Source: Acidimicrobiales bacterium
Lineage (GTDB): Bacteria > Actinomycetota > Acidimicrobiia > Acidimicrobiales > Ilumatobacteraceae
NCBI GenBank assembly: GCA_035719525.1
Contig: DASTFY010000247.1
Coordinates: forward strand, 1-41,431
Length of the DNA stretch: 41,431 nucleotides
Reading direction: 5' to 3'
The notes below the pieces were generated by a model. The model made no database searches, was not told where the DNA came from, and worked only from the letters and a program-made list of their open reading frames with translations. Shown here piece after piece: positions 6,942 to 30,070 of this stretch; the stretch's first letter is position 1, and every line of letters begins with the position of its first letter. Both the position numbers and the translations under genes were made by a program.

Positions 6942-6949
<8 letters not shown>

Positions 6950-12253: not shown

Positions 12254-12268
12254 CCGCGAGCGCCTGAG

Positions 12269-12679: not shown

Positions 12680-12697
12680 CCACGTGGGTGACCGTGC

Positions 12698-13186: not shown

Positions 13187-13245
13187 GGGTCTCCTTTGCT
13201 GCTCCTTGGTGGTCTGGTGATGTTGGTCGATCTGGTCCTCGCGCC

Positions 13246-14943: not shown

Positions 14944-15576
14944 ATGGCCAGGCAGCCGTCCGGCGACGGGGCGGAACCCGCGGAACGCCTCGAGGGTGAG
15001 GGCGCTGGCGGCCTGCAGCAGATCGTCAGCTCAATCGGGCCGAAACTGCGCGAGCTGCGGGTGCAGCGCGGCCTGTCACTCCAACAACTCGCGGACCGGG
15101 CCGACGTCTCGGCCGCCGCCATCCACAAGATCGAGCGATCGGGCATGGTGCCGACCATCACGACGCTGCTGAAGATCGCCGGGGCGCTCAACCGTCCAGT
15201 TTCGTACTTCGTCAACGAGGACCAGACGGAGAACCGGCCAGTGGCCTTCATCCCGGCCGACGCTCGCCGGCCGGTCTTCACCGCCCACCAGGGCATCGAT
15301 CTGGCCGGGATCTCGGGGCCCTACGGCCGGTTCTTCATGGCCGGAGCCGTGTCCGAAGTGCAACCCGGCGCCAACAGCGGCCACCGGCCCATGGAGCACC
15401 CCGGTGAGGAGCTGGTGCTCGTAGTGGAAGGGGTGTTCGAGCTCGACGTGGACGGGGAGCGGTTCACCCTCGGGGAGGGCGACGCCCTCCACTTCCGCAC
15501 GGACCGACCACATCGGTGGCGCAACCCCGGCGAGCTACCCATGAAGGCGATCTGGCTCGCGCTCCGGCCGTTCTGA
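14944..15576 (+). CDS. XRE-family transcriptional regulator with C-terminal cupin sensor domain
   Basis: HTH_3 motif IGPKLRELRVQRGLSLQQLADRADVSAAAIHKIERSGMVP. Cupin motif HPGEELVLVVEGVFEL...GDALHF....PHRW.N. Confidence 0.85.
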   Translation: MARQPSGDGAEPAERLEGEGAGGLQQIVSSIGPKLRELRVQRGLSLQQLADRADVSAAAIHKIERSGMVPTITTLLKIAGALNRPVSYFVNEDQTENRPVAFIPADARRPVFTAHQGIDLAGISGPYGRFFMAGAVSEVQPGANSGHRPMEHPGEELVLVVEGVFELDVDGERFTLGEGDALHFRTDRPHRWRNPGELPMKAIWLALRPF

Positions 15577-15593
15577 CCGACGTCACCACGTGC

Positions 15594-15638
15594 TTGTGTC
15601 GACGATGGCCGCGCTGAGCGCGGCGTGCTCCGACACAA
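15594..15638. repeat. nested palindromic element (TTGTGTCG ... CGACACAA with inner GC hairpin), copy 2
   Basis: Outer arms at 15594-15601 and 15631-15638; inner GCCGCGC-TGA-GCGCGGC. It starts 18 nt after the regulator stop. Confidence 0.7.
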
Positions 15639-15715
15639 ACGACTCCGCCGGCGACGACGGTGGGCAACTCGGCGAGGCGGTGACGGCCGAGGGCTGCGAG
15701 CGCGATCCTTTGTGC

Positions 15716-16123
15716 ATGCGCATCGCCTTTGGCACGGATGAGCGCACCGAGCTGAGCGACCACGTCCGGCGGCTGCTGCTGGAGGGCGGTCACGAGGTAG
15801 AGGAGGCCGGCGACGGTGACCCCTGGCCTGATGTCGGCCGCCGGGTGGGTGAGCTGGTGGCCTCGCAGCGTTGCCAGCGGGGCGTGGTGTGCTGCTGGAC
15901 CGGGACCGGCGTCTCGATGGCGGCCAACAAGGTGCCCGGCGTGCGGGCCGCGCTGTGCACCGACGCCGAGACAGCACGGGGGGCCCGTCGGTGGAACGAC
16001 GCCAACGTGCTGGCCTTCGGTCTGCGACTCACCAGCCCGACCGTGGCGGGCGAGATGATCGAGGCCTTCCTGAAGACGGGGCCCGACGCCGCCGAGGCGG
16101 CCAACATCGCCAAGCTCACCTGA
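15716..16123 (+). CDS. RpiB/LacA/LacB-family sugar-phosphate isomerase
   Basis: ATG at 15716. MRIAFGTDE......CCWTGTGVSMAANKVPGVRAALC.D...A...R.WNDANVLAFG matches the RpiB pattern. Confidence 0.8.
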   Translation: MRIAFGTDERTELSDHVRRLLLEGGHEVEEAGDGDPWPDVGRRVGELVASQRCQRGVVCCWTGTGVSMAANKVPGVRAALCTDAETARGARRWNDANVLAFGLRLTSPTVAGEMIEAFLKTGPDAAEAANIAKLT

Positions 16124-16322
16124 CCCCTGCGACGACGGCCTGCCACACTGCCCGGCGTGGTCGCCGGCGAGCTGCTCCCACACCTACGCCGGGCGCGCCG
16201 CCTTACGGTAAGGGAACTGGTCACGCCGATCGCGCTGAGCACGATCTGGCGTGACCGCTTCAGCCGCTGAGCTGTTGCGGCCGCAAGCCTCCCCCCGAGG
16301 AATCGGCGGCCACAACAGATGG

Positions 16323-17072
16323 TCACGCCATCGGGAGGCGAGCGTGGGTGATGCGGGTCGAGCCGGCGGTGATGTGTCGGAGGCCGAGCCACACTCCGAG
16401 GAGGAGGTCGGCTCCCGAGGTGTGGCCGAGCGCGGCTACCGCCGCCTCGTGTCGCCGGACCGAGGCGCGGTCGCCATCGACGACCGCGGCGAGCAGGCGA
16501 TGAACCGGTTCCACTGCCTGACCGCGAGCCGCCCAGCGGAGGAAGGCCAGCGAGATCGGATGGGTGCGCGCGTGCTCGACACCCCGCAGCTCCTCGCGTG
16601 AGGCCCCGGCCAATGCGAGGACCAGCACCATGCCGGCCAGGACGTCGTCGCCTGATGGGGTGAGCCCAGGCCCCCGACCGCCGAGGCGATCCACGACGGT
16701 CGCCAGCCCGCCCGCCGCGTGCGCAGCCTCTATCTCGTCGACCATCGCGGCCAGCGGGGACGCCGTCCAGCCGTCCAACAGTGCGAACCCGGTCGGGGCG
16801 GCGTGGGCCAGCGCCTCCGCATCGAGGCCCAGCGGGCGCCAGTGCGCCGCGCCGGTCCAGTCCAGGTGGAGCTGCTGGCCCGGCGCCGCCGCTGGTAGCT
16901 CGGCCAGGCGGAGGTGCAGCGGACCCGGCGGCACCGAGGGTCCCACGAGAGCCAGGGTCCCTGCGACGACGTCCACGTAGACGGCCCGGTCGAACGCCGC
17001 CAGCACCCGCCCTTCGGCCCGCGTCGAGCCGAGCGCGAACCAGCCCTCCCCGGCGTCAAGGATCAACGTCAC
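16323..17072 (-). CDS. DUF2877-family protein (YlbF/AllH-like)
   Basis: GRGPGLTPSGDDVLAGMVLV motif. The GTG start at 17072 overlaps the DUF1116 gene by 17 nt. Confidence 0.65.
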   Translation of the reverse strand: MTLILDAGEGWFALGSTRAEGRVLAAFDRAVYVDVVAGTLALVGPSVPPGPLHLRLAELPAAAPGQQLHLDWTGAAHWRPLGLDAEALAHAAPTGFALLDGWTASPLAAMVDEIEAAHAAGGLATVVDRLGGRGPGLTPSGDDVLAGMVLVLALAGASREELRGVEHARTHPISLAFLRWAARGQAVEPVHRLLAAVVDGDRASVRRHEAAVAALGHTSGADLLLGVWLGLRHITAGSTRITHARLPMA

Positions 17073-18489
17073 GGTCCAGCGCCAACAGCGCGGCCCGGAA
17101 GCACTCGACGGGTGCGGTGGCGACGCCGGCGCCCACCTGTCCGGAGCCGTCCGACGCGTGCAGGATGCCCGTCGTCACCCTCGGCGTGATGCCAAGCTCC
17201 ACCACCTTGCGCACGTCGACGCCGAGGGGGGTGCCGCGCCAGCCCAGCGTCGGCAGCGTGAAGCGGCTGCTCCGCCCGGCGCAAATCTGATCGAGTTGTC
17301 CCGTCATCGCGGCGGCGTCGGCCATCGTGCCGCCCACGAACGCCGCCACCGAAGGGGACCCGGCCGCCGCGGACCCGCCGAGGCCGACCAGCTCCAGCAC
17401 CGCGCTGTCCCCGACGTCCCGAGCACTGGTCTCCGGGCCCTGACCGGCGTAGTAGAGCGCCTGGCCGATGGGCGGAGCGGCACACAGGTGCCACTCGTTC
17501 GAGCCCGCCAGCCGGATCCCCAACTCGGTGCCGTTGCGGGCCAGGGCCGTCACGATGGACGAGCCCGGCACAAGGGCCGCCCAGTCGGTGAGCGCGCGGG
17601 CTGCGGCCATGGCCACCGTGAGGAAGAACAGGTGGTTGGCCGACAGGAATCGCGCCACGTCCACCCGAGCGGGGTGGTCCGAGGCCACCAGATGCGGTAG
17701 GAGGTTGCGGAGAAAGAGGTTGGTGGTGGCCTGCACCCGGATGTGGACGTCGTCGCCCATCTGCACCCCCTGGGCGGCCAGGCCGAGGACGTCGACGGGG
17801 CCGTGGCCGGCGACGGCATCGGCCAGCACGGGGCCGACGGCGTCGGCGAGGAAGCGCAGGCGCTCGACGGCGGCCGGCGTCTCGCGCCCGAACCATGGCG
17901 TTTCGCCTGGTCCCTGGTTGACCGGCGCGAACGCAGGCGGCGTCTCCGGGCTCTCGACGACCCAGACCGGCTGTGAGGGGCCGAGCGCGGTCACCATCGG
18001 GACCACGGTCTGGTGGCGGTGCGCGGCGTCGAGTACCACCTCACCGTCGGCGAGCTGTCGGCCCGCCTCCTCGACTGTGGCGGCCCAGCCCTCGGCGACC
18101 ACCGTGGCCCGCATCGAGCGGCGGAGTGGATCGCAGGCCTCCGCGTAGTCGACGGGCGGGCCGCAGTGGAGGAGCATGCGGCCTTCCAGGCCGGGCACGG
18201 TCTCCCCGGCGGGCGCGACGGCGACGGCGCGAGGATGGCCCTCGTCGAGCCGGCGGAGCACCTCGGCGTTGGCCGCGTCGATGGCGGCGGTCCGGGGGCC
18301 GTAGAGGCGGCGCAGCGCGGCGACGAGCTGCGGGTCGCCCTCGGCCGGGATCCGCCAGTCGACCGTGGCCAGCGGGTAGCCCTGCGCGGCGACGGCGTCG
18401 GCGAAGCGGGACAGCCCCACGTTCACCACGGCGGCCGACTCCGGCAGCGCGGGGACGACACGTCCGGGACCGTCGGTGGTGGAGCTCAC
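17056..18489 (-). CDS. DUF1116-family protein (YlbE/AllG-like)
   Basis: 477 aa with overall YlbE-like layout (NVGL..FA.....QG......DWRPPA.GD N-terminus; C-terminal GxxHA..G.GxxGAG). GTGA overlap with the upstream lyase gene. Confidence 0.7.
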   Translation of the reverse strand: MSSTTDGPGRVVPALPESAAVVNVGLSRFADAVAAQGYPLATVDWRIPAEGDPQLVAALRRLYGPRTAAIDAANAEVLRRLDEGHPRAVAVAPAGETVPGLEGRMLLHCGPPVDYAEACDPLRRSMRATVVAEGWAATVEEAGRQLADGEVVLDAAHRHQTVVPMVTALGPSQPVWVVESPETPPAFAPVNQGPGETPWFGRETPAAVERLRFLADAVGPVLADAVAGHGPVDVLGLAAQGVQMGDDVHIRVQATTNLFLRNLLPHLVASDHPARVDVARFLSANHLFFLTVAMAAARALTDWAALVPGSSIVTALARNGTELGIRLAGSNEWHLCAAPPIGQALYYAGQGPETSARDVGDSAVLELVGLGGSAAAGSPSVAAFVGGTMADAAAMTGQLDQICAGRSSRFTLPTLGWRGTPLGVDVRKVVELGITPRVTTGILHASDGSGQVGAGVATAPVECFRAALLALDRDVDP

Positions 18490-19970
18490 GGTCCCCGCCG
18501 CCCACCGGCCAGCCGGCGGGTGCGCGCCCTCACCTCGGCCTCGGCGCCGTCGAAACGCGAGAGCAGCCCGTCGGCCGCCACCTGGAGCCGCTCGGCCGTG
18601 GCGCGGATCTCGGACACCATCGCATCGACCGCGCCCGGCGCCGCGCCGCCCGTCCCGGTGCGGGAGGCCACCACCGCAGCGGGATCGAGCACCACAGCCA
18701 GGTCGGCGGCGGTGATCTCCAGGGGGTGTCCCAGCACCGAGCGGGCGGCCGCATCGAGGTCGGAGGGCGTCAGGTCAGCGGCGACGCGCCCGTCGGCGGC
18801 GAGGTCACGCACCGCCTGCCCCACCACCTGGTACGCGCGCCGGTAGTCGAGCCCGGTGCGCAGCATGACCTCCTCGGCGACATCGGTGGCCTGGCTGAAA
18901 CCGTGCTCCAGCCGGTCGAGCATCCGGGCCTCGTTGATGACGAGCGTCTCCACCACGCCGGCGGTCAGATCGGTCATCCGGTGGGTGTGCGCCACCAGGG
19001 TGGGGAGCTCGCCGTAGACGAAGATGAGTGAGTCGCTTCGCGCCGACGGGCTCTTCTGGATCGCCAGCAATCCGGTGAGCCCTCCGATGACCAGCCCGGC
19101 GGTTCCGCGGATCATCGACAGCGCGTAGGGATTGCGCTTCTGGGGCATGAGCACGCTGGAGCGGCTGAACCCGTCGGCCAGGTCGACGTAGTCGAACTCG
19201 GAACTGGCCCAGATCTCGAGGTCCTCGGCCAGCGAGGTCTGCGTACAGGCGAGGCTGGACGCGGTCGCCGCGAGCTGCACCAGCCCGTCGACCTGCCACA
19301 TGGCGTCGCGGGTGTTGACGATGACCTCGCTGAAGCCCAGCGACGCGGCGAACGATGTCCGTTCGGTCACCAGCCGGCTGCCGTTGACGCAACCGGCACC
19401 GCCGGGGCTGCCGTTGATCCAGGTGACGATCTCGAGCAGCCGGGCGGCGTCCCGCTGCACGGGGTAGGCGAACGAAGTGAGGTAGTGCCCGATCGTGGAC
19501 GGCTGCGCCTGCTGCAGGTACGTGTGGTCGGCGAAGAGGGTGTCTCGATGCTCGTGCGCACGCTCGGCCAGGGCCCGGGCCAGCCGCGCCGCGGACAGGA
19601 CGAGGTTGCACACCTGGCGCCGGAGATGGAGGCGGAAGGCGACACGCGTCGCCTCCCGTCGGGGCCGGCCGGCGTGCAGCCATCCCGCGGTGTCCCCCAG
19701 ACGACCGGTGAAGACCCGTTCCCGCGAGTTGTACGGCTCCCCGGCGGCGGCGTCATAGCCGAACCCGTCGGCCTCGACCGAGTCGGCCTCGAGTAGCACC
19801 GCGGCCAGCGCTTCCGCGTCATCGTCCGGCACGATCCCGTGGCCGTGCTGCTGCAGCAGGTGCGCCATGTCGGCCAGGTTGAGACCATCGTGAAGGATGC
19901 CCGCCCAGGCGATCTCGTACGCGAAGCCGGCCTCGACCAGCTCGGGAGCCGGCGCGCCGGCGGCGTTCAT
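18486..19970 (-). CDS. argininosuccinate-lyase-like enzyme (fumarate lyase superfamily)
   Basis: ATG at 19970 (ATGA overlap with the upstream gene). HTYLQQAQP and the signature SRSSVLMPQKRNPYAL. Confidence 0.8.
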   Translation of the reverse strand: MNAAGAPAPELVEAGFAYEIAWAGILHDGLNLADMAHLLQQHGHGIVPDDDAEALAAVLLEADSVEADGFGYDAAAGEPYNSRERVFTGRLGDTAGWLHAGRPRREATRVAFRLHLRRQVCNLVLSAARLARALAERAHEHRDTLFADHTYLQQAQPSTIGHYLTSFAYPVQRDAARLLEIVTWINGSPGGAGCVNGSRLVTERTSFAASLGFSEVIVNTRDAMWQVDGLVQLAATASSLACTQTSLAEDLEIWASSEFDYVDLADGFSRSSVLMPQKRNPYALSMIRGTAGLVIGGLTGLLAIQKSPSARSDSLIFVYGELPTLVAHTHRMTDLTAGVVETLVINEARMLDRLEHGFSQATDVAEEVMLRTGLDYRRAYQVVGQAVRDLAADGRVAADLTPSDLDAAARSVLGHPLEITAADLAVVLDPAAVVASRTGTGGAAPGAVDAMVSEIRATAERLQVAADGLLSRFDGAEAEVRARTRRLAGGRRGP

Positions 19971-21325
19971 GGCCACTGGTCCGGAGTGGCGGCGAGATAG
20001 GCCCGGACCCGCGCCGCGACGACGTCGGCATCGTGCTCGGCGGTGGGAATCCGGACATCGGTCACCAGCGTCTGCAACTCCTCGCCGGAGATGATCCCCG
20101 CCGCGGTCACCGCGCCCACCAGATCGTCGGCCACGGCGCCGGCCAGCATCGTTTGCAGTTCGGCCTGGGCCCGGTGCTTTCCCACTCGCTGGGCGTAGGC
20201 ACCCAGGACCCGCTCCGAGGACAACCGGCCCCGGCCGGTCTCCACATTGGCCCGCATCCGCTCGGCATCCACCTCGAGGCCGGCCACCAGGTCCAGGGCC
20301 AGCGCCAGCGCGCTCGAGGTCAGCAGGCAGACCTCGGGCACGGCCAACCATTCCGCCTTCCAGGCCCGGCCGTCGCGTTCGTGGATCTGCACCACGCCCT
20401 CCAGCAGCACCGCGGTCTGCGCTCTGACCAGTCGGGCGATCGTGTCGAGATGCTCGCTGCGCTCGGGGTTGCGCTTGTGGGGCATGGTGATGCTGCCGAC
20501 GACGCCCTCCCGGGTGGGCTCCCGCAGCTCGGCGATCTCATCGCGCTGGAGCTCCATGACCTCATTGCCGATGCGGGCCAGGGTGCCGGTGACGAGGGCC
20601 AGCAGCCCGGCCTGCTCCGCCCACCGGTCCCGGCTCGTGAGCCAGCTGATGCCGGGGTCGGCCAGGCCGAGGCGGTGGCAGAACCGGGAGCGCAGCTCGG
20701 GCCCGACCTCACCGAAGAAGCCGAGGGTGCCGACCGCACCGCCGAGCTGGCCGACCAGCCAACGCCTTCGACCGTCCTCCAGCCGCTGGAGGTGGCGGAC
20801 GATCTCGTCGGCCCATGACGCCACCTTCCACCCGAAGGTCACCGGCGCTCCGGGCTGGGCGTGGGTGCGCCCGGGCATCACGGTGCTCCGGTGGCGCTCG
20901 GTCAGGTCCACCAGCAGCGCGGCGAGCGCGCGGAGGTCCCGCCACACCAGCCCCATCACGCGCCGGGCGGCGAGCACCGTCCAGGTGTCGGTCAGGTCCT
21001 GAACGGTGGCGCCGTAGTAGACGAACTCCGCGGCGTCGTCGGGGAGCACTCGTTGGAGCGCGTGGATCAGGCCCAGTGTCGAGTGCGAGGTCCGGCGCGT
21101 CTCGGCCGCCAGGAAGTCGACGTCCAGCTTCTCGATCCGTGCCTCCCTGGCGATGCCCGCCGCCGCCGGGGCCGGGATGATGCCCAACTCGGCCTGGGCC
21201 TGGGCGAGTGCCACCAGGATGTCGAGCCAGGCTTGCCGGCGGGCGTCGTCGTCGAAGACCGCCCTCGCCTCGTCCGTGCCCCAGAGGTGCGCGTACTCCG
21301 CGCTGTCGCTCAGGCGGGCGCCCAC
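19967..21325 (-). CDS. adenylosuccinate lyase / 3-carboxymuconate cycloisomerase-like enzyme (fumarate lyase superfamily)
   Basis: Probable GTG start at 21325. YGATVQDLTDT, GRTHAQPG.P.TFG and the signature GSITMPHKRNPERSE. The 708-aa track ORF is an artefactual extension. Confidence 0.8.
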   Translation of the reverse strand: MGARLSDSAEYAHLWGTDEARAVFDDDARRQAWLDILVALAQAQAELGIIPAPAAAGIAREARIEKLDVDFLAAETRRTSHSTLGLIHALQRVLPDDAAEFVYYGATVQDLTDTWTVLAARRVMGLVWRDLRALAALLVDLTERHRSTVMPGRTHAQPGAPVTFGWKVASWADEIVRHLQRLEDGRRRWLVGQLGGAVGTLGFFGEVGPELRSRFCHRLGLADPGISWLTSRDRWAEQAGLLALVTGTLARIGNEVMELQRDEIAELREPTREGVVGSITMPHKRNPERSEHLDTIARLVRAQTAVLLEGVVQIHERDGRAWKAEWLAVPEVCLLTSSALALALDLVAGLEVDAERMRANVETGRGRLSSERVLGAYAQRVGKHRAQAELQTMLAGAVADDLVGAVTAAGIISGEELQTLVTDVRIPTAEHDADVVAARVRAYLAATPDQWP

Positions 21326-22194
21326 GCCGGCACCGCCTGGTGGGCGAGCGCGCGCAGAGCCTCCCGCACCTGTTCCAATGTGGCCCCCCAGGGCACGACG
21401 GCCCGCTGGTCCCGGCCGCTGCCCTCCAGCTCGATGCGGTCCTCCAGGAGGCAGCACTTGGTGAGCACGGGGCCCTGTCCCGCGTCGGGCCGGGCGCGGG
21501 GACAGAAGTCGATCGTCGGCGGGCGCTCTCCGTAGAACCACCGGTGGATCTCCTGCGACCGGGCACAGCCGAGCAGCGTCCACTCCTGCGGCGGCGGGCG
21601 CTGATCGAGGTACCAGGTGGCACCGCTCGGCACCGTGATGCCGGAGCCGCGGCAGGGCAGCAGCACGTCGCCCTGGGGCGGGGCCAGCGCGGCGAGATCG
21701 ACGAGCTCCGGCTGGAGCAGCACGGGCGGGAGCTCCTCGGCCACGTCCAGGACTCGCTGGGCCTGGTCCACGAGCTTGGCCGGGATGGGCGGTACCACCT
21801 CCCGTACCCTGACCACCACGGGCTCCGGGTCGAGCAGGAAGTTCACGTGGTGGTATCGGCCCTCCACCACCACGCAGCGGGCCGACGGATGCTCGGCGGC
21901 GACGCGGGCGAGCTGTGAGGGGACGCCGGTGTCGGTGTCGGGACGGCGGACGAGCACCGTCTCGTCCGGACCGGCCAGCACGGTCACCCGGCGAGCAGGG
22001 GAGAACAACGGGCCGGTGTCGTCGAGCTCCACCTCGACCAGCGCGTGGCCGCCAGCGCCGACCGCCACGACGTAGCGCGTCCTGCGGTAGCACTCCCGAC
22101 CCAGGAAGTGCGCCACCAGCGCGTCCTCGGTGAGGGGCACGTCGACATCGCTGACCGAGACCTGCCGGTAGGCGCCGGGAACGAGGTTGCCCAC
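21310..22194 (-). CDS. hypothetical protein, no recognisable family
   Basis: GTG at 22194 with a GAGGG RBS, 9 nt after the ComA stop. Strong GC3 bias. Its 3' end overlaps the next gene. Cys-containing motifs: LLPCRGSG, LLGCARSQEIH, DFCPRAR, TKCCLLED. Confidence 0.55.
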   Translation of the reverse strand: MGNLVPGAYRQVSVSDVDVPLTEDALVAHFLGRECYRRTRYVVAVGAGGHALVEVELDDTGPLFSPARRVTVLAGPDETVLVRRPDTDTGVPSQLARVAAEHPSARCVVVEGRYHHVNFLLDPEPVVVRVREVVPPIPAKLVDQAQRVLDVAEELPPVLLQPELVDLAALAPPQGDVLLPCRGSGITVPSGATWYLDQRPPPQEWTLLGCARSQEIHRWFYGERPPTIDFCPRARPDAGQGPVLTKCCLLEDRIELEGSGRDQRAVVPWGATLEQVREALRALAHQAVPAWAPA

Positions 22195-22202
22195 GCCCGC
22201 CC

Positions 22203-22985
22203 TCAGGATCGGACCGGGATCTGCCGTAGCAGGGCGGACGCCGTGGTGTCGGCCCGCAGCCCGAGGCGGAGCGCCTCCAGCCCCATCGCGTCCCGCGGGG
22301 CCACGTTCGAGAGGTTGACCTGCGATCCGACGTGGTTGACGAACCATGCCTGCTGGTCCTTGCGCGGCGCCTCGAACATCAGCCGCTCCGTCCCGACGCG
22401 CTCCACCAGAGCCTCGACCACGTCCGTTCGGACTCGGCCGTCCGGCCCGTAGATGCCCACGGTGCCGCTCTCGCGTCCCTCCGTGATCACCCAGGTCGCC
22501 CCGGCGTCCAGGTCGGCGAGGGCGAGCTCGACCCAGGCGCCGGCGGTCAGCGCCGGTTGCGGATCCTTGGTGCCGACCTCGGCGATGACGGGCACGCAGC
22601 TTCCGACGCGCCGGATGAGCGCCGCCTTGCGCTCGGCGCCGAGCAGGTCGAGGCCGTCACTCACCTCGAGGAACGGGAACCCGCACTCCAACGCCCATTC
22701 CAAGAACGCGTCGACTCGGTCCTGGAGGGCGGCGATCTCGAGCAGGGTGCCTCCGGGGCAGGGGGCCACGCCATGGCGGCGCAACACCGCGAGCTTGGCC
22801 GCCAGCCGGGGATCGAGGTAGGAGCTGCCCCAGCCGAGCTTCCAGAGATCGATGAAGCCGGCGTTGGTGTCCAGGACGGCGTCCACGTCCTCCACCGGCA
22901 GCCCGCCGTCGATCACGGCGGTGATGCCGTGTGAGCGTGGCTTGGCCGGGCGTTGCTCCAGGTCGAGGAACGTCGGCCGGCCCAT
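22203..22985 (-). CDS. phosphosulfolactate synthase (ComA) family protein
   Basis: 260 aa. KPR..G.T.V.D.G........D.L......IDL.K.GWG.S resembles ComA/(2R)-phospho-3-sulfolactate synthase. First gene of a six-gene coupled operon. Confidence 0.75.
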   Translation of the reverse strand: MGRPTFLDLEQRPAKPRSHGITAVIDGGLPVEDVDAVLDTNAGFIDLWKLGWGSSYLDPRLAAKLAVLRRHGVAPCPGGTLLEIAALQDRVDAFLEWALECGFPFLEVSDGLDLLGAERKAALIRRVGSCVPVIAEVGTKDPQPALTAGAWVELALADLDAGATWVITEGRESGTVGIYGPDGRVRTDVVEALVERVGTERLMFEAPRKDQQAWFVNHVGSQVNLSNVAPRDAMGLEALRLGLRADTTASALLRQIPVRS

Positions 22986-22992
22986 GTCTCTT

Positions 22993-23021
22993 ATGGTAAA
23001 CGGTCACCTACTATCGTTCAA
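22993..23021 (-). promoter_or_regulatory. candidate sigma-70-like promoter for the ComA operon (leaderless)
   Basis: On the minus strand: TTGAAC, 17 nt, TACCAT, 7 nt, then the ATG (22985). The whole divergent intergenic region is only 38 bp. Confidence 0.45.
23009..23014 (+). promoter_or_regulatory. candidate -10 TACTAT for the AIR-synthase-related gene (leaderless)
   Basis: TACTAT ends 9 nt before the ATG at 23024. No clear -35 element. Confidence 0.3.
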
Positions 23022-23023
23022 CC

Positions 23024-24031
23024 ATGCAGGACCACGGCAGCGGCGACCGTGACGACCTGCGCACCATCATCGCCGCCGTGCGCTCCAGCGGGGGCTGGAC
23101 GTCCAAGGCCAGCATCGGCCAGGTCGGCGAGGTGCTCGGTCGCCCGGACTGGTTGACCGGACCGGGGGACGACGGTGCCGTCGTGCGGGCCGGCGACGAC
23201 TCGCTGGTCGTCTGCGGTGAGGCCATCCTGCCCGCGTTCGTCGAGCGGGACCCGTACGGCGCCGGCGTCGCCGCCGTGCTGGCCAACGTCAACGACGTCG
23301 CCGCCATGGGCGCCGTTCCCCTCGCCGTGGTCGACACCCTGGTCGGGGACGACGCCACTTGCCGGGCGGCGCTGGAGGGCATGCGCTTCGCGTCGGCCCT
23401 GTACGACGTGCCGGTGGTGGGCGGGCACCTGACCCGCAGCCCTGACCGCACCGCGCTCTCCGCGTTCGCGCTGGGCCGCTGCCCCGGCCCCGTGCTCTCG
23501 GCCACTCATGTCCGGCCCGGTCACCAACTCGGCCTGCTCGGCTGCCTGGAAGGCACCATGCGGTCCGACTTCCCGTTCTTCCCCTCCTTCGACGAGCGGG
23601 GCGACCGCCTCGCCGGGGACGTCCGCCTGCTGGCGGCGCTGGCCGGGGACGGATCGTGCGTGGCGGCCAAGGACGTGAGCATGGCGGGGCTGCTCGGCAG
23701 CCTGGCGATGCTGCTGGAGCCCACCCGAACCGGTGTCGTCCTCGACCTCGACGACGTTCCCGTTCCCGCTGGAGTCGGGTTGCTCGAGTGGCTGGTGTGC
23801 TTCCCGTGTCTGGTGTTCCTCGTGTGCGGCCCGCCGGCCGAAGCAGCGACGATCGCGACGGCAGCCGAGGACCGCGGCCTGACGTACGCGCCACTCGGCA
23901 CCATCGACGGCAGTGGGGTGGTCGCCCTCCGGCGGGGGGACGAGTCGTCCGAGCTGATCGATCTCCGCTCCGAGGGGATCACCCGGCTGCCACCCCCAAA
24001 CGGGGCCGTCCCCCTCGCTACAGATCGATGA
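23024..24031 (+). CDS. AIR-synthase-related protein, sll0787 family (Nit1C component)
   Basis: PurM-like motifs DDGAVV, AVLANVNDVAAMGA.P, GGH. The size and context match the sll0787/MSMEG_0566 type. Confidence 0.75.
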   Translation: MQDHGSGDRDDLRTIIAAVRSSGGWTSKASIGQVGEVLGRPDWLTGPGDDGAVVRAGDDSLVVCGEAILPAFVERDPYGAGVAAVLANVNDVAAMGAVPLAVVDTLVGDDATCRAALEGMRFASALYDVPVVGGHLTRSPDRTALSAFALGRCPGPVLSATHVRPGHQLGLLGCLEGTMRSDFPFFPSFDERGDRLAGDVRLLAALAGDGSCVAAKDVSMAGLLGSLAMLLEPTRTGVVLDLDDVPVPAGVGLLEWLVCFPCLVFLVCGPPAEAATIATAAEDRGLTYAPLGTIDGSGVVALRRGDESSELIDLRSEGITRLPPPNGAVPLATDR

Positions 24032-24488
24032 CCATCGGCTGGTGCTCCACACCGACGTAGATCTCCCTCGGCCCGTCCGTTCGCCATCCCAGACGTCGGA
24101 AGAAGCCGACGTTGGCCGGCTGGATGTGCGCGACCATGCGCTGCCCGCCCAGGCGGCCCGCCGTGGCGACCGCGAAGCGCACGAGCGGTGCGCCCGTGCT
24201 GTGCCGCCGGTACGCGTGGGCGACGGCCAGGCGATCGCCCTGCCACAGCAGGCTGCTCGGCTCCAGCGGGTAGAGGCGCACTGTCCCGGCCGGTTGGCCG
24301 TCCCACAGGGCCAGCACCTTGAGCGTGGACGGATCGTCGTCATGCCCGTCCCGGTCGTCGGGGTCGAACAGCCCCTGCTCCTCGACGAAGACCTCCGCGC
24401 GGATCCGATGGTGGTGGTGGAGGCTCCATGCGTCGTCAACGAGGCGGCACTCGGCGGCCGGGGCGGCGATCGCCGTCGGCTCAGCCAC
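24018..24488 (-). CDS. GNAT N-acetyltransferase, MSMEG_0567/Sll0786 family (Nit1C component)
   Basis: GTG at 24488 (8-nt overlap with the radical SAM gene). R.EVFVEEQGLF..DDRD..DD, GTVRLYP and ...W.GDRLAV...R....G..LVRFAV..A...G...M.A.IQ..N..FF.RLGW match the family pattern. Confidence 0.75.
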   Translation of the reverse strand: MAEPTAIAAPAAECRLVDDAWSLHHHHRIRAEVFVEEQGLFDPDDRDGHDDDPSTLKVLALWDGQPAGTVRLYPLEPSSLLWQGDRLAVAHAYRRHSTGAPLVRFAVATAGRLGGQRMVAHIQPANVGFFRRLGWRTDGPREIYVGVEHQPMVIDL

Positions 24489-25653
24489 CGGCGACGGCGA
24501 CCGTGGGCTTGCGGCCGATCTGGAGGTGGCGTTCCACCGCGGCCATGGGGGAGCAGGCGTTGCAGCGCGAGCACCCGGCCTTCGCCGTGCCCGAGCCGAT
24601 GCCGCCGCCCTCGAGGTGGGCGGCCACGCGACGGGCGATGCGCTCGACGTCGATCGGGTCGGGGGGCGACCAGTCGGCCATGAGGCTCCCGGCCACCGGC
24701 CGCAGCGGCACGACGAAGGGGTAGACCCCGGCGTCGATGGCGCGCCGGCATCCCTCGACGACGAGGTCGGGATCCTCACCCATGCCAATGATGACGTAGG
24801 TGGTCACCTGGCCCCGGCCGAAGAGCGCCACCGCCCGCTCCCAGGCCTCGAAGTAGCGCGCGATGCCGGTTCGGGCCTTGGCCGGAGCGACCCTTTCCAG
24901 CACGGTCGGGTCGAACGTCTCGACGTGGATGCCGACAGTGTCGGCGCCCAGCGCGTGGACGCGGTCGATGACGTCGAGATCCTCTGGCGGTTCGAACTGC
25001 ACCTCGACCGGCAGACCGCTGGCCTCCTTGACCGCCTGGGCGCACTGCCCGACGTACAGGGCGCCTCGGTCGGGTGCGCGTGTGCTCCCGGTCGTCAGGG
25101 TGACGTCCACGGCGCCATCGAGGTCCCGCGCCGCCACCGCCACCTCGGCGAGTTGGGACGGCGTCTTCTTGGCGATCGTGCGGCCGGAGGCGAGCGACAC
25201 GCCGATACCGCAGAAGGTGCACTGGTCGTCGTTCCCCCAGTAGGCGCAGGTCTGGAGGACGGTGCTGGCCAGCGAGTCGAGGTGGAGGAGCGCGATCTTC
25301 CAGTACGGGACGCCCTCGGCCGTCTCCAGGTCGTAGAAGCGCGGGCGGGGCTGGGTCCGGGCGCCGGCCACCCGGCGGCCGTGCTCGTAGATGGCGACAC
25401 CGCCGACGGGACCATCGCCTCGCGTCTCGTCCCCGCGGAGCTCGAAGGGCGAGTGCAGCGTCCGCTCCGGGTCGGTGTCGAGCGTCAGCGCGAGGTCCTC
25501 CACCCAGATCATGCCGACATCGGACGGCCCGGCTCCACCGCGACGACCCTCGGTGGCCACCGCCACCCTCAGCCCTTCCGACTGCAGCCGGAGGACCACC
25601 GCCGCCAGATCGTCGTGTGCGGGATCCTCGTGTCGGATCATGACCAGCGACAT
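24481..25653 (-). CDS. radical SAM protein, MSMEG_0568 family (Nit1C component)
   Basis: 390 aa. Cys triad C136-x8-C145-x2-C148 (CAYWGNDDQCTFCG), a TIM-barrel-like core and a C-terminal CSRCNAC. ATG lies 3 nt after the upstream stop. Confidence 0.8.
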   Translation of the reverse strand: MSLVMIRHEDPAHDDLAAVVLRLQSEGLRVAVATEGRRGGAGPSDVGMIWVEDLALTLDTDPERTLHSPFELRGDETRGDGPVGGVAIYEHGRRVAGARTQPRPRFYDLETAEGVPYWKIALLHLDSLASTVLQTCAYWGNDDQCTFCGIGVSLASGRTIAKKTPSQLAEVAVAARDLDGAVDVTLTTGSTRAPDRGALYVGQCAQAVKEASGLPVEVQFEPPEDLDVIDRVHALGADTVGIHVETFDPTVLERVAPAKARTGIARYFEAWERAVALFGRGQVTTYVIIGMGEDPDLVVEGCRRAIDAGVYPFVVPLRPVAGSLMADWSPPDPIDVERIARRVAAHLEGGGIGSGTAKAGCSRCNACSPMAAVERHLQIGRKPTVAVAGG

Positions 25654-25656: not shown

Positions 25657-26319
25657 CTATGGGTGATGGCGAGCGTCAACCTCCACACCCCACTCGCCAG
25701 CCAATCGCCGGAGGATCTCGTCCCACCCGCTCCTGTCCCGAGCCACCAACTCGTCGGTCTCCGAGCCCTCGTGGGAGGTCACCTCGCCGGTGTCCAGGTC
25801 GACGTCGACAGGCACCAACCGCCACTGTGGTTCTCCGGTGTCGAGGTCGGGCTCCAGCGTCGTGCGGACCCCACGGGCCAGGCCGAGGTGAACGCGGAGC
25901 TCGGGCACGGTGGACAGGAGTCCGATGGTCGCCGGAGACGCCACATCCACCCACGAGGCACCCGACTCCCGCGCCGCTCCGAACGCCTCGACGCGGCGCT
26001 GCTGGTCCTCTGCCTGGGTGATCTCGCGGTCGCGGGTGGCGCAGGCGGCGGCGACCAGGTCGTCGGGGGCCAGCCCGACGAGCTGCAGGGCACCGAGATC
26101 GAGGCGGGTGAGCGCCTCGGTCGGGTCACGACTGAAGGCCAGCAGGCCCTGGTGATCATGGACGTCCTCGCGCAAGAAGGCCAGCAATCCGCCCACCGCC
26201 TCGATGGCCTGCTGATAGGCCGGCACGCTGATCATGGCCAGGGGGTAGACGCGGGCTTCCGCCGCGCTCCACCGGCCGCGGGCGGCCCCCAGCTCGTGGT
26301 CGGCGGGTGCGGGCGTCAC
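25657..26319 (-). CDS. hypothetical protein, no recognisable family
   Basis: GTG at 26319 with a strong AAGGAGG RBS 5 nt upstream. GC3-biased. First gene of the hyp-rSAM-GNAT operon. Confidence 0.6.
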   Translation of the reverse strand: MTPAPADHELGAARGRWSAAEARVYPLAMISVPAYQQAIEAVGGLLAFLREDVHDHQGLLAFSRDPTEALTRLDLGALQLVGLAPDDLVAAACATRDREITQAEDQQRRVEAFGAARESGASWVDVASPATIGLLSTVPELRVHLGLARGVRTTLEPDLDTGEPQWRLVPVDVDLDTGEVTSHEGSETDELVARDRSGWDEILRRLAGEWGVEVDARHHP

Positions 26320-26391: not shown

Positions 26392-27360
26392 GTGGGAGGA
26401 CGCGCCGTTGTCGCCCTCGGTGGCAACGCCCTCGTCGGGTCGGGCGAGGCGGGTACGTACCGGGAGCAATGTGCGCGCGCCCGCGCCATGGCCGAGCCCG
26501 TCGCCGGGCTCGTGTCATCGGGCTGGCAGGTGGTCCTCGTCCACGGCAACGGGCCCCAGGTCGGCGCGCTCGCCCTCCAGCAGGAATCGGCTCGCGCCGT
26601 GGTGCCCGGCCAGCCGCTCTTCTCGCTGGTGGCCATGACGCAGGGCGCCACCGGGAGCCTGCTGACCCTCGCGCTGAGGGAGCGGCTCGGCCCGCGGCCA
26701 CCCGTCGTATCCATGGTCACCCATACCATCGTCCACGGCGACGACCCGGCCTTCACGGCGCCGACGAAGCCGATCGGGCCCTTCCTAGACGAGGCAGAGG
26801 CGCGGCAACTCGCGCTCGAACGGGGCTGGACGGTGGTCGACGACTCCGGCCGGGGCTGGCGACGGGTCGTGCCGTCGCCCGAGCCGCTGGGGCTGCTGGA
26901 GTTGGCGACGGTGAGGGCGCTGGTGGAGATCGGCGCGGTCGTCATCGCCAGCGGCGGTGGTGGCATCCCCGTCGTCATGACCGGGCGGGGCTACCGCGGC
27001 ATCGAAGCGGTGGTCGACAAGGATCTGGCCGCGGGACGACTCGCCTCCGATCTCGGCGTCGACGCGCTGGCCATCGTCACCGAGGTGCCCGCCGCCGCCG
27101 TCGACTTCGGCACGCCGGCCGAGCGGCCCCTCGGGGACGTGCCCGTCGGGGAGGCCGAACGGCTTCTGGCGGCCGGGCAGTTCGCCGCCGGGAGCATGGG
27201 CCCGAAGGTCGAGGCGGCCGCCCGGTTCGTCCGCCAAGGCGGCTCGATGGCCGTGATCACCTCCGTCGACCGGCTGCTGGCCACCCTGTCGCCAGGTGCC
27301 GGGCGAGCGCCGACCGGCACCCGGATCCGGCCGGAGGGCCAGCCGGCCCCCGCCGGATGA
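26392..27360 (+). CDS. arcC: carbamate kinase
   Basis: RAVVALGGNAL, VLVHGNGPQVG, KPIGPF, GGGGIPV and VVDKDL are classic carbamate kinase / amino-acid-kinase motifs. Confidence 0.85.
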   Translation: MGGRAVVALGGNALVGSGEAGTYREQCARARAMAEPVAGLVSSGWQVVLVHGNGPQVGALALQQESARAVVPGQPLFSLVAMTQGATGSLLTLALRERLGPRPPVVSMVTHTIVHGDDPAFTAPTKPIGPFLDEAEARQLALERGWTVVDDSGRGWRRVVPSPEPLGLLELATVRALVEIGAVVIASGGGGIPVVMTGRGYRGIEAVVDKDLAAGRLASDLGVDALAIVTEVPAAAVDFGTPAERPLGDVPVGEAERLLAAGQFAAGSMGPKVEAAARFVRQGGSMAVITSVDRLLATLSPGAGRAPTGTRIRPEGQPAPAG

Positions 27361-28910
27361 GCAGCGCGGTGGCCGCCGTCCTCCGCCGCCTCGCCGACAC
27401 CTACGTCGACTCCGTGCTGCTGCTGGCTGCCACCCGCGCCATGCAAGAGGTCGAAGGAGTCACCTGGGCGACGGCGGTCATGGCCACGCCGGCGAACCTC
27501 GAGGCACTCGAAGACCAGGGTGTCACTGGACCAGAGCTCTCAGGCGCCGCCGCCAACGACCTGGTGCTGGCCGTTCGAGCCGGCGACGCGGCCGCGGCCG
27601 ACCGGGCCCTGGATGGCGGGACCTCGGCGGTGCGGGGCCAGCGGTCGGGCGCAGGAGAACCCGGGCCGGTACCAGCGGCGCGGGACCTAGCCTTGGCGGC
27701 TCGGGAGCTGCCGGGGGCCAACATCGCCATCGTCTCGGTGCCGGGCGCCTATGCCGCCCTCGAGGCCCACAAGGCGCTCTCGGCCGGGTTGGACGTATTG
27801 CTGTTCAGCGACAACGTTCCCGTCGATGAGGAAGTCGAGCTGAAGCGGCGCGCCGCCGAGGTCGGCCACCTGGTGATGGGCCCGGGGGCCGGCACGGCCG
27901 TGCTCGGCGGCTGCGGCCTGGGCTTCGCCAACCGCGTGCGGCCCGGCCGAGTCGGGGTGGTGGCGGCCGCCGGCACCGGTGCCCAGGAGGTCATGAGCCT
28001 CCTCGACCAGTGGGGAGAGGGGATCAGTCAGGTCATCGGGGTGGGCGGCCGCGACCTGTCGAGCGCCGTCGGCGGGGCCATGGCGACGTTGGCTGTCCAG
28101 GCGCTCGACGCCGATCCGGCCACCGAGGTCATACTGCTGGTCTCCAAGCCGCCGGCGCCGGACGTGGCCCGACGGGTGGCTTCCGCGGCGGTGGCGACAC
28201 CGCTGGTCGCGGGGATGGTCGGGTGGCCGGCCGGCACCGCCCTGGCCGGCGCGGCCGCCGTCCGCTCGACGCTGGAAGGTGCGGCGCTCAGCACCCTGGA
28301 GGTGCTCGGGCAACCACCACCGCGCCCCGACAGCGCGTTGGCGGCCTCGGTCCGTCGCGCCATCGAACACCTCCCGCCCTCCCGCACGCTGGTACGGGGC
28401 CTCTACTCGGGTGGCACGCTCTGCTACGAGGCGCTGAGCCTGCTCGAGCCGGCGCTGGGACCGGTCTGGTCGAACACGCCGCTCGACCCCCGCTACCGCG
28501 TGCCCGCACCTGCCGATGCGCACGTCTGCCTCGACCTGGGCGAGGAGGAGTACACGCAGGGCCGCCCCCACCCGATGATCGACCCGGAAGCGCGACTCGA
28601 CGAGCTGGAGGCGCTGCGAACGGCCGGGGACGTCGCGGCCGTCGTGCTGGACGTGGTGCTCGGCTACGGGGCCCATCCCGATCCTGCGGCCGTCCTGGCG
28701 CCGGTCTGTGCGGAGCTGACCGGCCCCGGTGGCCCGTGCGTCGTCGTGTACGTGCTGGGCACCGAAGGCGATCCCCAGGGCCTGGCCCGGCAGCGGGCCG
28801 CGTTGGTGGAAGCCGGCTGCATCGTGGCCCCCACCGGCGCACGGGCCGCGCTCGCCGCGGCGGCGATCGCAACCCGGGACCCGATGCTGGTGGAGCAGAC
28901 CGTTCCGTGA
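27357..28910 (+). CDS. FdrA-family protein (AllF-like, succinyl-CoA-synthetase-like fold)
   Basis: ATG at 27357 (ATGA overlap with arcC). YVDSV.LL..............A.MATP.N. at the N-terminus, then NIAIVSVPG.YA and GPG.GTA...........VG.V.A.GTG.QE. Confidence 0.75.
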   Translation: MSSAVAAVLRRLADTYVDSVLLLAATRAMQEVEGVTWATAVMATPANLEALEDQGVTGPELSGAAANDLVLAVRAGDAAAADRALDGGTSAVRGQRSGAGEPGPVPAARDLALAARELPGANIAIVSVPGAYAALEAHKALSAGLDVLLFSDNVPVDEEVELKRRAAEVGHLVMGPGAGTAVLGGCGLGFANRVRPGRVGVVAAAGTGAQEVMSLLDQWGEGISQVIGVGGRDLSSAVGGAMATLAVQALDADPATEVILLVSKPPAPDVARRVASAAVATPLVAGMVGWPAGTALAGAAAVRSTLEGAALSTLEVLGQPPPRPDSALAASVRRAIEHLPPSRTLVRGLYSGGTLCYEALSLLEPALGPVWSNTPLDPRYRVPAPADAHVCLDLGEEEYTQGRPHPMIDPEARLDELEALRTAGDVAAVVLDVVLGYGAHPDPAAVLAPVCAELTGPGGPCVVVYVLGTEGDPQGLARQRAALVEAGCIVAPTGARAALAAAAIATRDPMLVEQTVP

Positions 28911-30070
28911 CGGCGGTCGCGCTCGTCACCTACTCGACCAAGCCGCGGGGCGGCGTCGTGCACACCGTGTGCCTGGGCGAGGCGCTGGTCCGGGAGGGCC
29001 TCGACGTGGAGGTCATCGCGCTCGGGGATCCCGCCGCCGGCTTCTTCCGGCCCGTCGCGGTGCCGCACCGCTTCCTTCCCGCGCCGGCACATCTGGACAC
29101 ACTCGAGGAGCGGGTGATGGCCTCGGTCGACGCGCTGGCCGACGGGCTACGGCGCATGGCCGACGCGGGAGACCTGCCGCCGATCCTCCACACCCAGGAC
29201 TGCATCTCCGCCCGGGCCGCGGTGCGCGTACGCGACGAAGGGATGCCGGTGCGCGTGTTGCGCACCGTGCACCACGTCGACGACTTCACCACACCGGCCC
29301 TGATCGAGTGCCAGCTCCGATCGATCCTCGACCCCGACCGATGCTTCGTGGTCAGCCGGATGTGGCAGCAGCGGTTGTTCGACGAGTACGGCGTCGTCGC
29401 GGAGGTGGTGGGCAACGGGGTGGACGTCGACCGCTTCGCCGCCGCTCCCTCACGCGCTCGCCTGGCGGCCCGGCGCGCCGAGGTCGGGGCGACCGGTCGG
29501 TTCCTCGTCCTGTCCGTCGGCGGCATCGAACCCCGCAAGGGCAGTGACCATCTGGTGCGCTCCTTGGCGCTCCTGGCGGATCGGCTGGACCACCGACCCG
29601 TCCTGGCCGTGGTCGGTGGCCACTCGTTCCAGGATCACCGCGCCTATCGGGAGAACGTGCTGGCGTCACTGCCCGCCCTCGGCTTGGAGCTCGGGCGCGA
29701 TGTCGTGCTCCTCGGTACGGTGCCGGACGGCGACCTGCCGTGCTGGTACCACGCGGCCGACGTCTTCGCCTTCCCGTCCGTGAACGAGGGCTTCGGGCTG
29801 GCGGTGCTGGAAGCGCTGGCCGCCGGAACGCCCACCGTCGTGGCCGATCTGCCCGTCTTCCGGGAGTACCTGACCTACGGGCGCGATGTGCTGGCGGTCC
29901 CGCCCGGCGATGACACCGCCCTCGCCGACGCGCTGCACTGCATCGCCACCGACCCTTCCCTGCGAGGCCGCCTGGCCGGTGCCGGGCGCCAGGTCGCCGC
30001 TCGCTTCACCTGGACCCGCGCCGCCGAACAACACCTGGCCGTCTACCGCTCGCTACCCCCGCTGCCGTAG
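28907..30070 (+). CDS. glycosyltransferase, MSMEG_0565 family (Nit1C component; GT-B/GT4-like)
   Basis: GTG at 28907 (GTGA overlap with fdrA-like). ALVTYSTKPRGGVVHT N-terminus and the C-terminal FPS..EGFGL..LEALA.G.P. Confidence 0.75.
   Translation: MTAVALVTYSTKPRGGVVHTVCLGEALVREGLDVEVIALGDPAAGFFRPVAVPHRFLPAPAHLDTLEERVMASVDALADGLRRMADAGDLPPILHTQDCISARAAVRVRDEGMPVRVLRTVHHVDDFTTPALIECQLRSILDPDRCFVVSRMWQQRLFDEYGVVAEVVGNGVDVDRFAAAPSRARLAARRAEVGATGRFLVLSVGGIEPRKGSDHLVRSLALLADRLDHRPVLAVVGGHSFQDHRAYRENVLASLPALGLELGRDVVLLGTVPDGDLPCWYHAADVFAFPSVNEGFGLAVLEALAAGTPTVVADLPVFREYLTYGRDVLAVPPGDDTALADALHCIATDPSLRGRLAGAGRQVAARFTWTRAAEQHLAVYRSLPPLP

Follow-up and report, generated by a model that had tools for sequence, protein, structure and literature searches.

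The window analysed here, the whole 41,431-nucleotide stretch of contig DASTFY010000247.1 from an Acidimicrobiales bacterium, carries on its minus strand an operon of six genes (22985..16323). The first four of these (22985..18486) probably form a bacterial-type (xcb) module for the biosynthesis of coenzyme M (CoM), set within a larger supercluster devoid of alkene and epoxide genes. The bacterial CoM pathway is that of xcbABCDE in Xanthobacter autotrophicus Py2, on the plasmid pXAUT01 (Partovi 2018; Wu 2022; PMC9457059), and the window has homologues of XcbB, XcbA, XcbD and XcbC. The observations comprise homology, shared diagnostic motifs, conservation and gene order; the individual reactions, the end product and any connection with neighbouring modules are our inference from them.

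The six genes are joined by one 8-nucleotide (nt) gap and four overlaps of start and stop codons, as read directly on the strand and from the list of open reading frames (ORFs). The leading ComA-like gene runs from an ATG at 22985 to a TGA at 22205-22203. After the 8-nt gap, gene 2, of the XcbA family, extends from a GTG at 22194 to a stop at 21310 and has GAGGG 7-8 nt upstream of its start. The first lyase-like gene (lyase 1; GTG 21325 to 19967) overlaps gene 2 by 16 nt at 21310-21325, and the second (lyase 2; ATG 19970 to 18486) overlaps lyase 1 through an ATGA at 19967-19970. An AllG-like gene (GTG 18489 to 17056) then overlaps the lyase 2 stop through a GTGA at 18486-18489, and an AllH-like gene (GTG 17072 to 16323) overlaps the AllG-like gene by 17 nt. 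On the plus strand, a PurM-like gene starts at 23024, exactly 38 bp from the ComA-like start. All of these junctions, and the divergent neighbour, are as an earlier sequence-only reading of the same DNA had described them, and the motifs GSITMPHKRNPERSE and SSVLMPQKRNPYAL that it quoted for the two lyases are found in the translations. A gene caller based on G+C by codon position (GC3) returned the identical six genes, the sole difference being that it started lyase 2 two codons (6 nt) earlier, at GTG 19976 instead of ATG 19970. In alignments, the assigned N-termini of the operon proteins match those of their homologues.

The first operon gene (22203..22985, minus strand) encodes a ComA/XcbB protein of the (2R)-phospho-3-sulfolactate synthase type, which matches Pfam PF02679 over its full length with 261.5 bits. 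It aligns end to end with the phosphosulfolactate synthases in the PDB (1u83, E = 3e-44; 1qwg, E = 3e-41) and is 43 per cent identical to Py2 XcbB and 47 per cent identical to the ComA proteins of NBB4 and JS614, two ethene and vinyl-chloride users with CoM clusters on the plasmids pMYCCH.02 and pNOCA01, respectively (PMC8727900). Its score on the archaeal equivalog TIGR03849 (230.9) falls under the cut-off of 280, as expected for a bacterial member of the family. A ComA-type enzyme had seemed unexpected at the head of this operon when the sequence was read by itself; the context is that of bacterial CoM, where ComA is to be expected.

The next gene (21310..22194, minus strand), previously described as encoding an unknown protein, is indeed the second of the operon, and its product can now be assigned to the XcbA family (DUF7714). 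It scores 326.9 bits on NCBIfam NF052538 (cut-off 150) and 302.8 bits on Pfam PF24830, and it is 42 per cent identical to Py2 XcbA. Five cysteines (C181, C210, C231, C247, C248) are invariant over fourteen XcbA homologues and Py2 XcbA. The Xanthobacter protein is a [2Fe-2S] protein that reduces sulfoethanethioaldehyde to CoM (PMC9457059). An AlphaFold (AF2) model of the window protein reached a pLDDT of 85.5 and a pTM of 0.80, and sequence and Foldseek searches of the PDB found nothing significant (best E = 7e-3, TM < 0.25), so the model gives no mechanistic information. The fold of this type of CoM-forming reductase is apparently uncharacterised.

Genes 3 and 4 encode two different members of the aspartase/fumarase superfamily, the former akin to adenylosuccinate lyase/CMLE and the latter to argininosuccinate lyase (ASL), as had been recognised from the sequence. 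The best NCBIfam match of lyase 1 (19967..21325, minus strand) is the XcbD model NF052536, with 572 bits, and that of lyase 2 (18486..19970, minus strand) is the XcbC model NF052535, with 405 bits. Lyase 1 is 48 per cent identical to Py2 XcbD and 50-53 per cent identical to the NBB4 and JS614 proteins, and lyase 2 is 38 per cent identical to Py2 XcbC. When lyase 1 was searched by tblastn against 72,556 plasmids, the top five matches were those of NBB4 (54 per cent), JS614 (52 per cent), two Methylocystis plasmids (51 per cent) and Py2 (48 per cent); all five are CoM/alkene plasmids, and they rank before the PcaB and PurB genes. Taken over the four Xcb proteins, identity is 38-48 per cent between the window and Py2 and 36-44 per cent between NBB4 and Py2. 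The window is therefore no more distant from the characterised Py2 enzymes than accepted actinobacterial CoM clusters are.

The active-site motifs of the two lyases show the same resemblance. The signature loop of lyase 1 reads GSITMPHK, which is common to all reference XcbD sequences, whereas the CMLE/ADL structures carry GSSxMPHK. The loop of lyase 2 is R-S-S-V-L-M-PQKRNPYA, as against T-G-S-S-x-M-PQKKNPD in ASL, and it shares the consensus R-[AS]-S-[VK]-x-x-PQKRNPYA with a related locus (L001), Py2, NBB4 and JS614. The second serine of the loop is gone in both enzymes, which have GSI and SSV rather than GSS. Lyase 2 also carries TYLQxAQP in place of the ASL motif THLQxAQP, a change seen in the XcbC proteins of Py2, NBB4, JS614 and L001 as well; the histidine of THLQ, the catalytic one of ASL/delta-crystallin, is a tyrosine in lyase 2. 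The sequence-only reading had named a loss of the catalytic serine or histidine as a mark of pseudoenzymes. Such a loss is present, but the same changes occur in active XcbC and XcbD, so they point to changed chemistry (neofunctionalisation) and not to dead enzymes. The characterised XcbD adds cysteine to sulfoacrylate, and the characterised XcbC eliminates phosphate from phosphosulfolactate (PMC9457059).

In the pathway that we propose, ComA/XcbB would add sulfite to phosphoenolpyruvate (PEP) to give phosphosulfolactate, XcbC would eliminate phosphate from this product to give sulfoacrylate, and XcbD would add the cysteine thiol across the sulfoacrylate double bond to give 3-sulfopropionyl-cysteine. 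XcbE, a pyridoxal phosphate (PLP)-dependent C-S lyase/decarboxylase that is not in the window, would then release sulfoethanethioaldehyde, which the iron-sulfur protein XcbA would reduce to 2-mercaptoethanesulfonate, that is, CoM. The predicted conversion of PEP, sulfite and cysteine to 3-sulfopropionyl-cysteine by ComA, XcbC and XcbD is well supported by homology. CoM is the likely end of the pathway because no locus has lost XcbA and most relatives carry XcbE.

Over 2,900 homologues of the XcbA-like protein, the majority of them in soil metagenomes, came up in a database search; among cluster representatives at 50 per cent identity, which were searched exhaustively, 470 lay at E ≤ 1e-3, and the XcbA family is therefore compact. 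In a scan of one genome per species, relatives of XcbA were found in at least 252 genomes. The best eighty of these 252 are all from Actinomycetota and include metagenome-assembled genomes (MAGs) of Acidimicrobiales, which are the closest (71 per cent), as well as Nocardioidaceae, Streptosporangiaceae, Jiangellaceae and Nanopelagicales. Cultured carriers include Planosporangium flavigriseum, Nonomuraea, Streptosporangium and Nocardioides guangzhouensis. The closest XcbA among the GTDB representatives is 71 per cent identical to that of the window, and the exact window XcbA was found only on metagenome contigs of 2-3 kb. Two neighbourhoods, at 71 and 64 per cent identity, contain the same supercluster; a 332-amino acid PALP gene separates XcbD from XcbC in one and is missing from the other.

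Presence and absence in related loci were counted with tblastn thresholds for every window protein, and the counts given here refer to forty distinct loci with full 10-kb flanks, each from a different species of Actinomycetota. ComA, XcbA, XcbD, XcbC and AllG each occur in 40/40 loci, and an XcbE-like PLP gene stands at the XcbE position in thirty-six. The window genes outside the conserved block (DLH, F420-LLM and the RpiB-like gene) were found in none. In every locus long enough to show it, also those in which the other modules are rearranged, the core order is kept: the divergent AIRS-like gene, then ComA, XcbA, XcbD, an optional XcbE, XcbC and AllG. Because this order is conserved among relatives while genes outside the supercluster recur in 0/40 loci, the arrangement is not due to chance. 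In a neighbour-joining tree of concatenated XcbA, XcbD and XcbC, the alkene-plasmid sequences lie outside a single chromosomal clade; the tree was midpoint-rooted and without bootstrap, and its placements are indicative only. The XcbC and AllG of one Acidimicrobiales MAG were called as one 990-amino acid fusion protein (locus L002, 12279-15251), whereas a second contig (L003) carries them separately; the fusion may be genuine or may stem from a frameshift in the assembly.

Only a comparison of loci revealed the promoter in front of ComA. A consensus scan of 15500-24200 found no sigma-70-like promoter and one terminator-like site, outside the operon, and such a scan has little power at more than 70 per cent G+C; G+C around the operon is 70-76 per cent. 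The 38-bp divergent region (22986-23023) houses a predicted minus-strand promoter (22993..23021), with a -35 element TTGAAC at 23021-23016, a 17-nt spacer, a -10 element TACCAT at 22998-22993 and 7 nt to the ATG at 22985. The same layout (TTGMAC or TGTCGG, N17, TAnnnT, N7, start codon) precedes ComA in most related loci, and the Nocardioidaceae version is TGTCGG, N17, TAGTAT, N7, GTG. This geometry predicts a transcript that is probably leaderless and begins at the ComA start codon, so that the operon would be expressed from a conserved promoter with the xcb genes translationally coupled to AllG and AllH. The spacer contains GATAGTAGGTGACCG in the window and CTAAAGTAGAC or GAAAGTGAAC in other loci, and this conserved spacer may be an operator for an HTH-cupin (PuuR-like) protein encoded at 14944..15576 on the plus strand. 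That protein matches Pfam HTH_3 and Cupin_2, is found in 22/40 loci, is 90-92 per cent identical in the closest of them and is a candidate regulator of the supercluster.

Several observations weigh against a CoM pathway in this organism. A tblastn search covering every frame of the 41-kb window gave no XcbE-like sequence, even at E ≤ 10, and family searches found no PALP-fold gene among all predicted window genes. The window alone therefore cannot complete CoM synthesis. Neither the window nor 83 related loci have a homologue of the CoM-using enzymes EaCoMT/XecA or XecD, and for XecC (2-KPCC) both show weak, generic flavoprotein similarity. The two lyases fall short of the NCBIfam cut-offs (572 against 600 on the XcbD model, 405 against 575 on the XcbC model), the separate chromosomal clade means that enzyme specificity could have drifted, and we found no CoM measurement from any carrier of the supercluster in the open-access literature. 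The scores can be calibrated on known clusters. On the XcbD model, where the window falls just short of the cut-off, Py2 scores 643, NBB4 711 and JS614 688; on the XcbC model, Py2 scores 742, NBB4 399 and JS614 332, so the cut-off of 575 shuts out bona fide actinobacterial XcbC too.

The missing XcbE can also be followed across loci. In L001, the PLP gene lies between XcbD and XcbC (12240-13238). It is absent from the operon in the window and in loci L002/L003/L008, L005, L007, L010, L031 and L033, in each case without a remnant and always with XcbA kept. These operons occupy several separate positions in the tree (the window, L005/L007, L002/L010 and L031/L033). Since the window keeps an intact and conserved xcbA, the XcbE step is probably provided in trans by another part of the genome.

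A different product is the alternative that has most to be said for it, though we consider it rather unlikely. In this case the module would make some other sulfonated metabolite, such as sulfoacrylate, 3-sulfopropionyl-cysteine or a compound derived from the latter; AllFGH/carbamate kinase, the GT4 glycosyltransferase and the GNAT protein of the supercluster might then carbamoylate, glycosylate or acetylate it, and the outcome would be a natural product, cofactor or low-molecular-weight thiol that is new. The absence of XcbE from the window and its loss from the operon in several lineages, the sub-cut-off scores of XcbC and XcbD and the lack of CoM-using enzymes in the window and the 83 related loci would all fit such a product. 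So would the invariable coupling of xcb to AllG, the co-occurrence of the MshA/BshA-like GT4 with the GNAT protein, and the PLP enzyme of the supercluster itself, which scores 215 bits on the XcbE model (cut-off 450), with CuyA next at 175. However, the sole known role of XcbA is the last reduction to CoM, and it is kept with all its conserved cysteines even where XcbE is missing. The PLP gene stands at the XcbE position in most loci, and the low XcbC score is shared by bona fide actinobacterial CoM clusters. A module that once made CoM and now lies degenerate after the loss of xcbE, no longer functional in this organism, is very improbable. The gene is cleanly absent, with the ATGA junction of XcbD and XcbC in its place and no remnant, but the six ORFs are intact, with a strong coding signal, conserved catalytic motifs and a conserved promoter. 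Moreover, four or more separate lineages have operons without XcbE, at 64-67 per cent protein identity to the window, a persistence that implies long-term purifying selection.

We give the least credence of all to PurB/ArgH-type C-N lyases that would act on aspartate-derived adducts and release fumarate in a nitrogen-installing pathway, as the sequence-only reading had proposed. Both enzymes do belong to Pfam Lyase_1, and their nearest solved structures are CMLE/ADL and ASL. Yet lyase 1 scores 242 on purB (cut-off 326) and 288 on pcaB (cut-off 356), and lyase 2 scores 254 on argH (cut-off 279.5), all below cut-off and far under their scores on the XcbD and XcbC models. The second loop serine is lost in both, and the THLQ histidine is replaced by tyrosine as in the characterised XcbC enzymes. 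The same reading had already noticed that no SAICAR or argininosuccinate synthetase is present, which leaves the lyases without a partner synthetase, and the adjacent ComA and XcbA complete a known pathway that does not involve nitrogen. The PurM-like protein, put forward as a possible ATP-utilising partner, appears instead to be a relative of the Nit1C-type sll0787 protein. We also considered PcaB and aromatic catabolism for lyase 1, given a kynurenine operon upstream; this was ruled out by the sub-cut-off pcaB score, the lack of pcaC/D genes and the XcbD loop.

The proposed CoM module differs in its setting from the clusters in which the pathway is known. The window shares with Py2 the substitutions in XcbC and XcbD and the XcbA cysteines, but the Py2 order is A-B-C-D-E and that of the window is xcbB(comA)-xcbA-xcbD-xcbC, without XcbE. 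In addition, the window operon is not on an alkene plasmid or beside xec/aam genes, and is coupled to AllG/AllH. The NBB4 and JS614 clusters are closer in layout, with the order ComA-XcbA('xcbF1')-XcbD-PLP-XcbC and 44-53 per cent identity to the window, and a flavoprotein of the CoA-disulfide-reductase (CoADR) family lies nearby in both contexts (32-34 per cent identity between the flavoproteins). These clusters are nonetheless plasmid-borne, have etn genes, CoA-transferase genes and MEDS regulators as neighbours and never lack the PLP gene, whereas the clade of the window is chromosomal, forms a separate branch and has AllFGH, carbamate kinase and Nit1C-type neighbours. Because the gene order and the adjacent CoADR-family flavoprotein are common to pMYCCH.02, pNOCA01 and the supercluster, the comparison suggests that these two plasmids may have recruited their CoM genes from this actinobacterial pool.

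The supercluster extends over ~10.5-30.1 kb of the window, with roughly twenty genes, and combines the xcb module with a complete set of AllFGH plus carbamate kinase and most of a Nit1C cluster. The last two genes of the operon belong to the AllFGH set. The AllG-like protein (DUF1116; 17056..18489, minus strand), an AllFGH-type transcarbamoylase subunit, matches Pfam PF06545 with 199.8 bits and follows XcbC in 40/40 loci. The AllH-like subunit (DUF2877; 16323..17072, minus strand) matches Pfam PF11392 with 82.9 bits and was detected after AllG in 17/40 loci, a count to be read with the poor conservation of the family and its under-detection by tblastn. The remaining members are on the plus strand in a second operon (26392..30070) with overlapping junctions, formed by a carbamate kinase (26392-27360; NF009007, 281.8 bits, cut-off 266; 34/40 loci), FdrA/AllF (27357-28910; NF004760, 395.6 bits, cut-off 433; 35/40 loci) and an MSMEG_0565-type GT4 glycosyltransferase (28907-30070; TIGR04047, 365.9 bits, cut-off 259.85; 35/40 loci), the last with MshA/BshA-like similarity. 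In E. coli, allFGHK encodes an oxamic transcarbamylase and a catabolic carbamate kinase (PMC11326118, PMC9843812). AllF/FdrA, AllG, AllH and carbamate kinase are all found in the window, but split into two operons, with allGH behind xcbC and the kinase and allF ahead of the GT4 gene. None of the allantoin-degradation genes allB/C/D/E was found in the annotation of the predicted window genes, and because allantoin-pathway genes are lacking nearby, the substrate of the window AllFGH is probably not oxalurate.

Nit1C clusters (nitB-H; MSMEG_0565-0572; sll0783-0787) have been linked to nitrogen starvation and cyanide assimilation, their function being obscure (PMC7815647, PMC1199592). Besides the GT4, three of the window proteins exceed the cut-offs of Nit1C family models. 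These are a GNAT protein of the MSMEG_0567 (NitE) type (24018-24488, minus strand; TIGR04045, 100.8 bits, cut-off 68.45; 34/40 loci), a radical SAM protein of the MSMEG_0568 (NitD) type (24481-25653, minus strand; TIGR04043, 366.6 bits, cut-off 303.7; 33/40 loci) and a DsrE-like protein of the MSMEG_0572/Sll0783 (NitB) type (12698-13249, minus strand; TIGR04044, 207.9 bits, cut-off 109.85; 31/40 loci). The divergent PurM-fold protein (23024..24031, plus strand) resembles the sll0787 (NitF) type; it matches Pfam AIRS and AIRS_C and scores 238.5 bits on TIGR04049 (cut-off 321.3), ahead of methanogenesis marker 2 at 152.8 bits. Its gene is divergent from ComA in 38/40 loci. The radical SAM operon begins with a gene for a 220-amino acid protein (25657..26319, minus strand), which has a homologue in 18/40 loci.

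The window departs from canonical Nit1C clusters in that no members of the MSMEG_0569 and MSMEG_0570 families were recognised; nitrile hydratase (NHase), a CoADR-like flavoprotein and an 89-amino acid protein are in comparable places. Its genes are also spread across several divergent operons, with xcb and allFGH-carbamate kinase genes in between. The flavoprotein (13512-14846, minus strand; 30/40 loci) has a single-Cys motif, YSPCGIPY, and matches CoA-disulfide reductase models (TIGR03385, 225 bits, below cut-off), not MSMEG_0569 (NitH). The 89-amino acid protein (13246-13515, minus strand; 31/40 loci) has no match to the NitG model, and neither it nor the 220-amino acid protein matches any Pfam or NCBIfam family. 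No carbon-nitrogen hydrolase domain, as in the NitC nitrilase (sll0784 family), was found in any predicted window gene. A nitrile hydratase operon (10532-12253) occupies the slot that the nitrilase has in canonical Nit1C clusters. It is on the plus strand and consists of the beta subunit (10532-11191; Pfam NHase_beta_N/C), the alpha subunit (11188-11787; Pfam NHase_alpha) and a beta-like accessory protein (11846-12253). These genes mark one edge of the supercluster and adjoin it in 15-17/40 loci, or about 40 per cent. An OsmC gene follows (12269-12679, plus strand; Pfam OsmC; 31/40 loci). Between the HTH-cupin gene and AllH lies a gene of the RpiB/LacAB family (15590-16123, plus strand), with a 40-amino acid N-terminal extension; it has a counterpart in 0/40 fully covered loci and is therefore a window-specific insertion.

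We tentatively propose that many Actinomycetota that do not oxidise alkenes make CoM, or a sulfonated thiol closely related to it, for a purpose not described before, namely as a building block or carrier within this supercluster of Nit1C-type genes, AllFGH/carbamate kinase, nitrile hydratase and thiol-redox genes, although we hold this less firmly than the identity of the module itself. Judging from synteny only, the sulfonated thiol would serve AllFGH and carbamate kinase, the Nit1C-type enzymes, nitrile hydratase and the thiol-redox proteins. One could speculate about a cyanide/nitrile cycle, in which nitrile hydratase would hydrate a thiol-bound form to an S- or N-carboxamide, AllFGH would convert this to carbamoyl phosphate and free thiol, and carbamate kinase would yield NH3, CO2 and ATP. 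Equally speculative are the reverse, HypF/HypE-like direction, which would use the PurM-like protein and make a nitrile or thiocyanate, and a new glycosylated sulfonated thiol as the product of the supercluster.

The four-gene core belongs to a known pathway family, and NCBIfam and Pfam models exist for XcbA/DUF7714. What appears to be new is a module that is chromosomal, has diversified vertically and is widespread in non-alkene Actinomycetota, lies in one operon with AllGH amid Nit1C-type genes, and seems to have lost XcbE more than once. In the open-access literature we found no description of chromosomal xcb in a context of AllGH and Nit1C-type genes, nothing on Nit1C with coenzyme M or on DUF7714/XcbA with AllG/DUF1116, and nothing on this context of xcb in Acidimicrobiia, Streptosporangiales or Nocardioidaceae. 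According to a comparative study from 2024, CoM biosynthesis genes are known from methanogenic archaea and from aerobic bacteria that use alkenes, and from no other organisms (PMC11507031). If the module does make CoM, the cofactor would have a second, unrecognised physiological role in bacteria, and the chromosomal genes may be the pool from which the alkene plasmids of Mycolicibacterium and Nocardioides recruited theirs. The module would likewise connect a defined small-molecule pathway with the AllFGH transcarbamoylase, itself defined only recently, and with the Nit1C-type genes, described as obscure in function since 2005 (PMC7815647). The culturable carriers make the questions of the CoM role and of Nit1C open to experiment.

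The rest of the window includes further genes of note. CCG domains reduce CoM-containing heterodisulfides in methanogens, and a 756-amino acid membrane protein encoded 6 kb beyond the supercluster (35854-38124, minus strand) has two of them, HdrD/DsrK-like, together with a NarI-like domain and 4Fe-4S motifs; its gene falls beyond the conserved block and is probably of general occurrence in actinobacteria. The nitrile hydratase genes are directly preceded by a complete-looking kynurenine/3-hydroxyanthranilate operon (4948-10389, plus strand), with genes for a RidA-like protein, 3-HAO, an amidohydrolase_2 protein, an FAD monooxygenase, tryptophan 2,3-dioxygenase and kynureninase. Scattered sulfur and nitrogen genes encode an FGE-sulfatase-type protein (2929-3858, minus strand), a sulfotransferase (34595-35455, minus strand) and a PII nitrogen regulator (39301-39642, plus strand).

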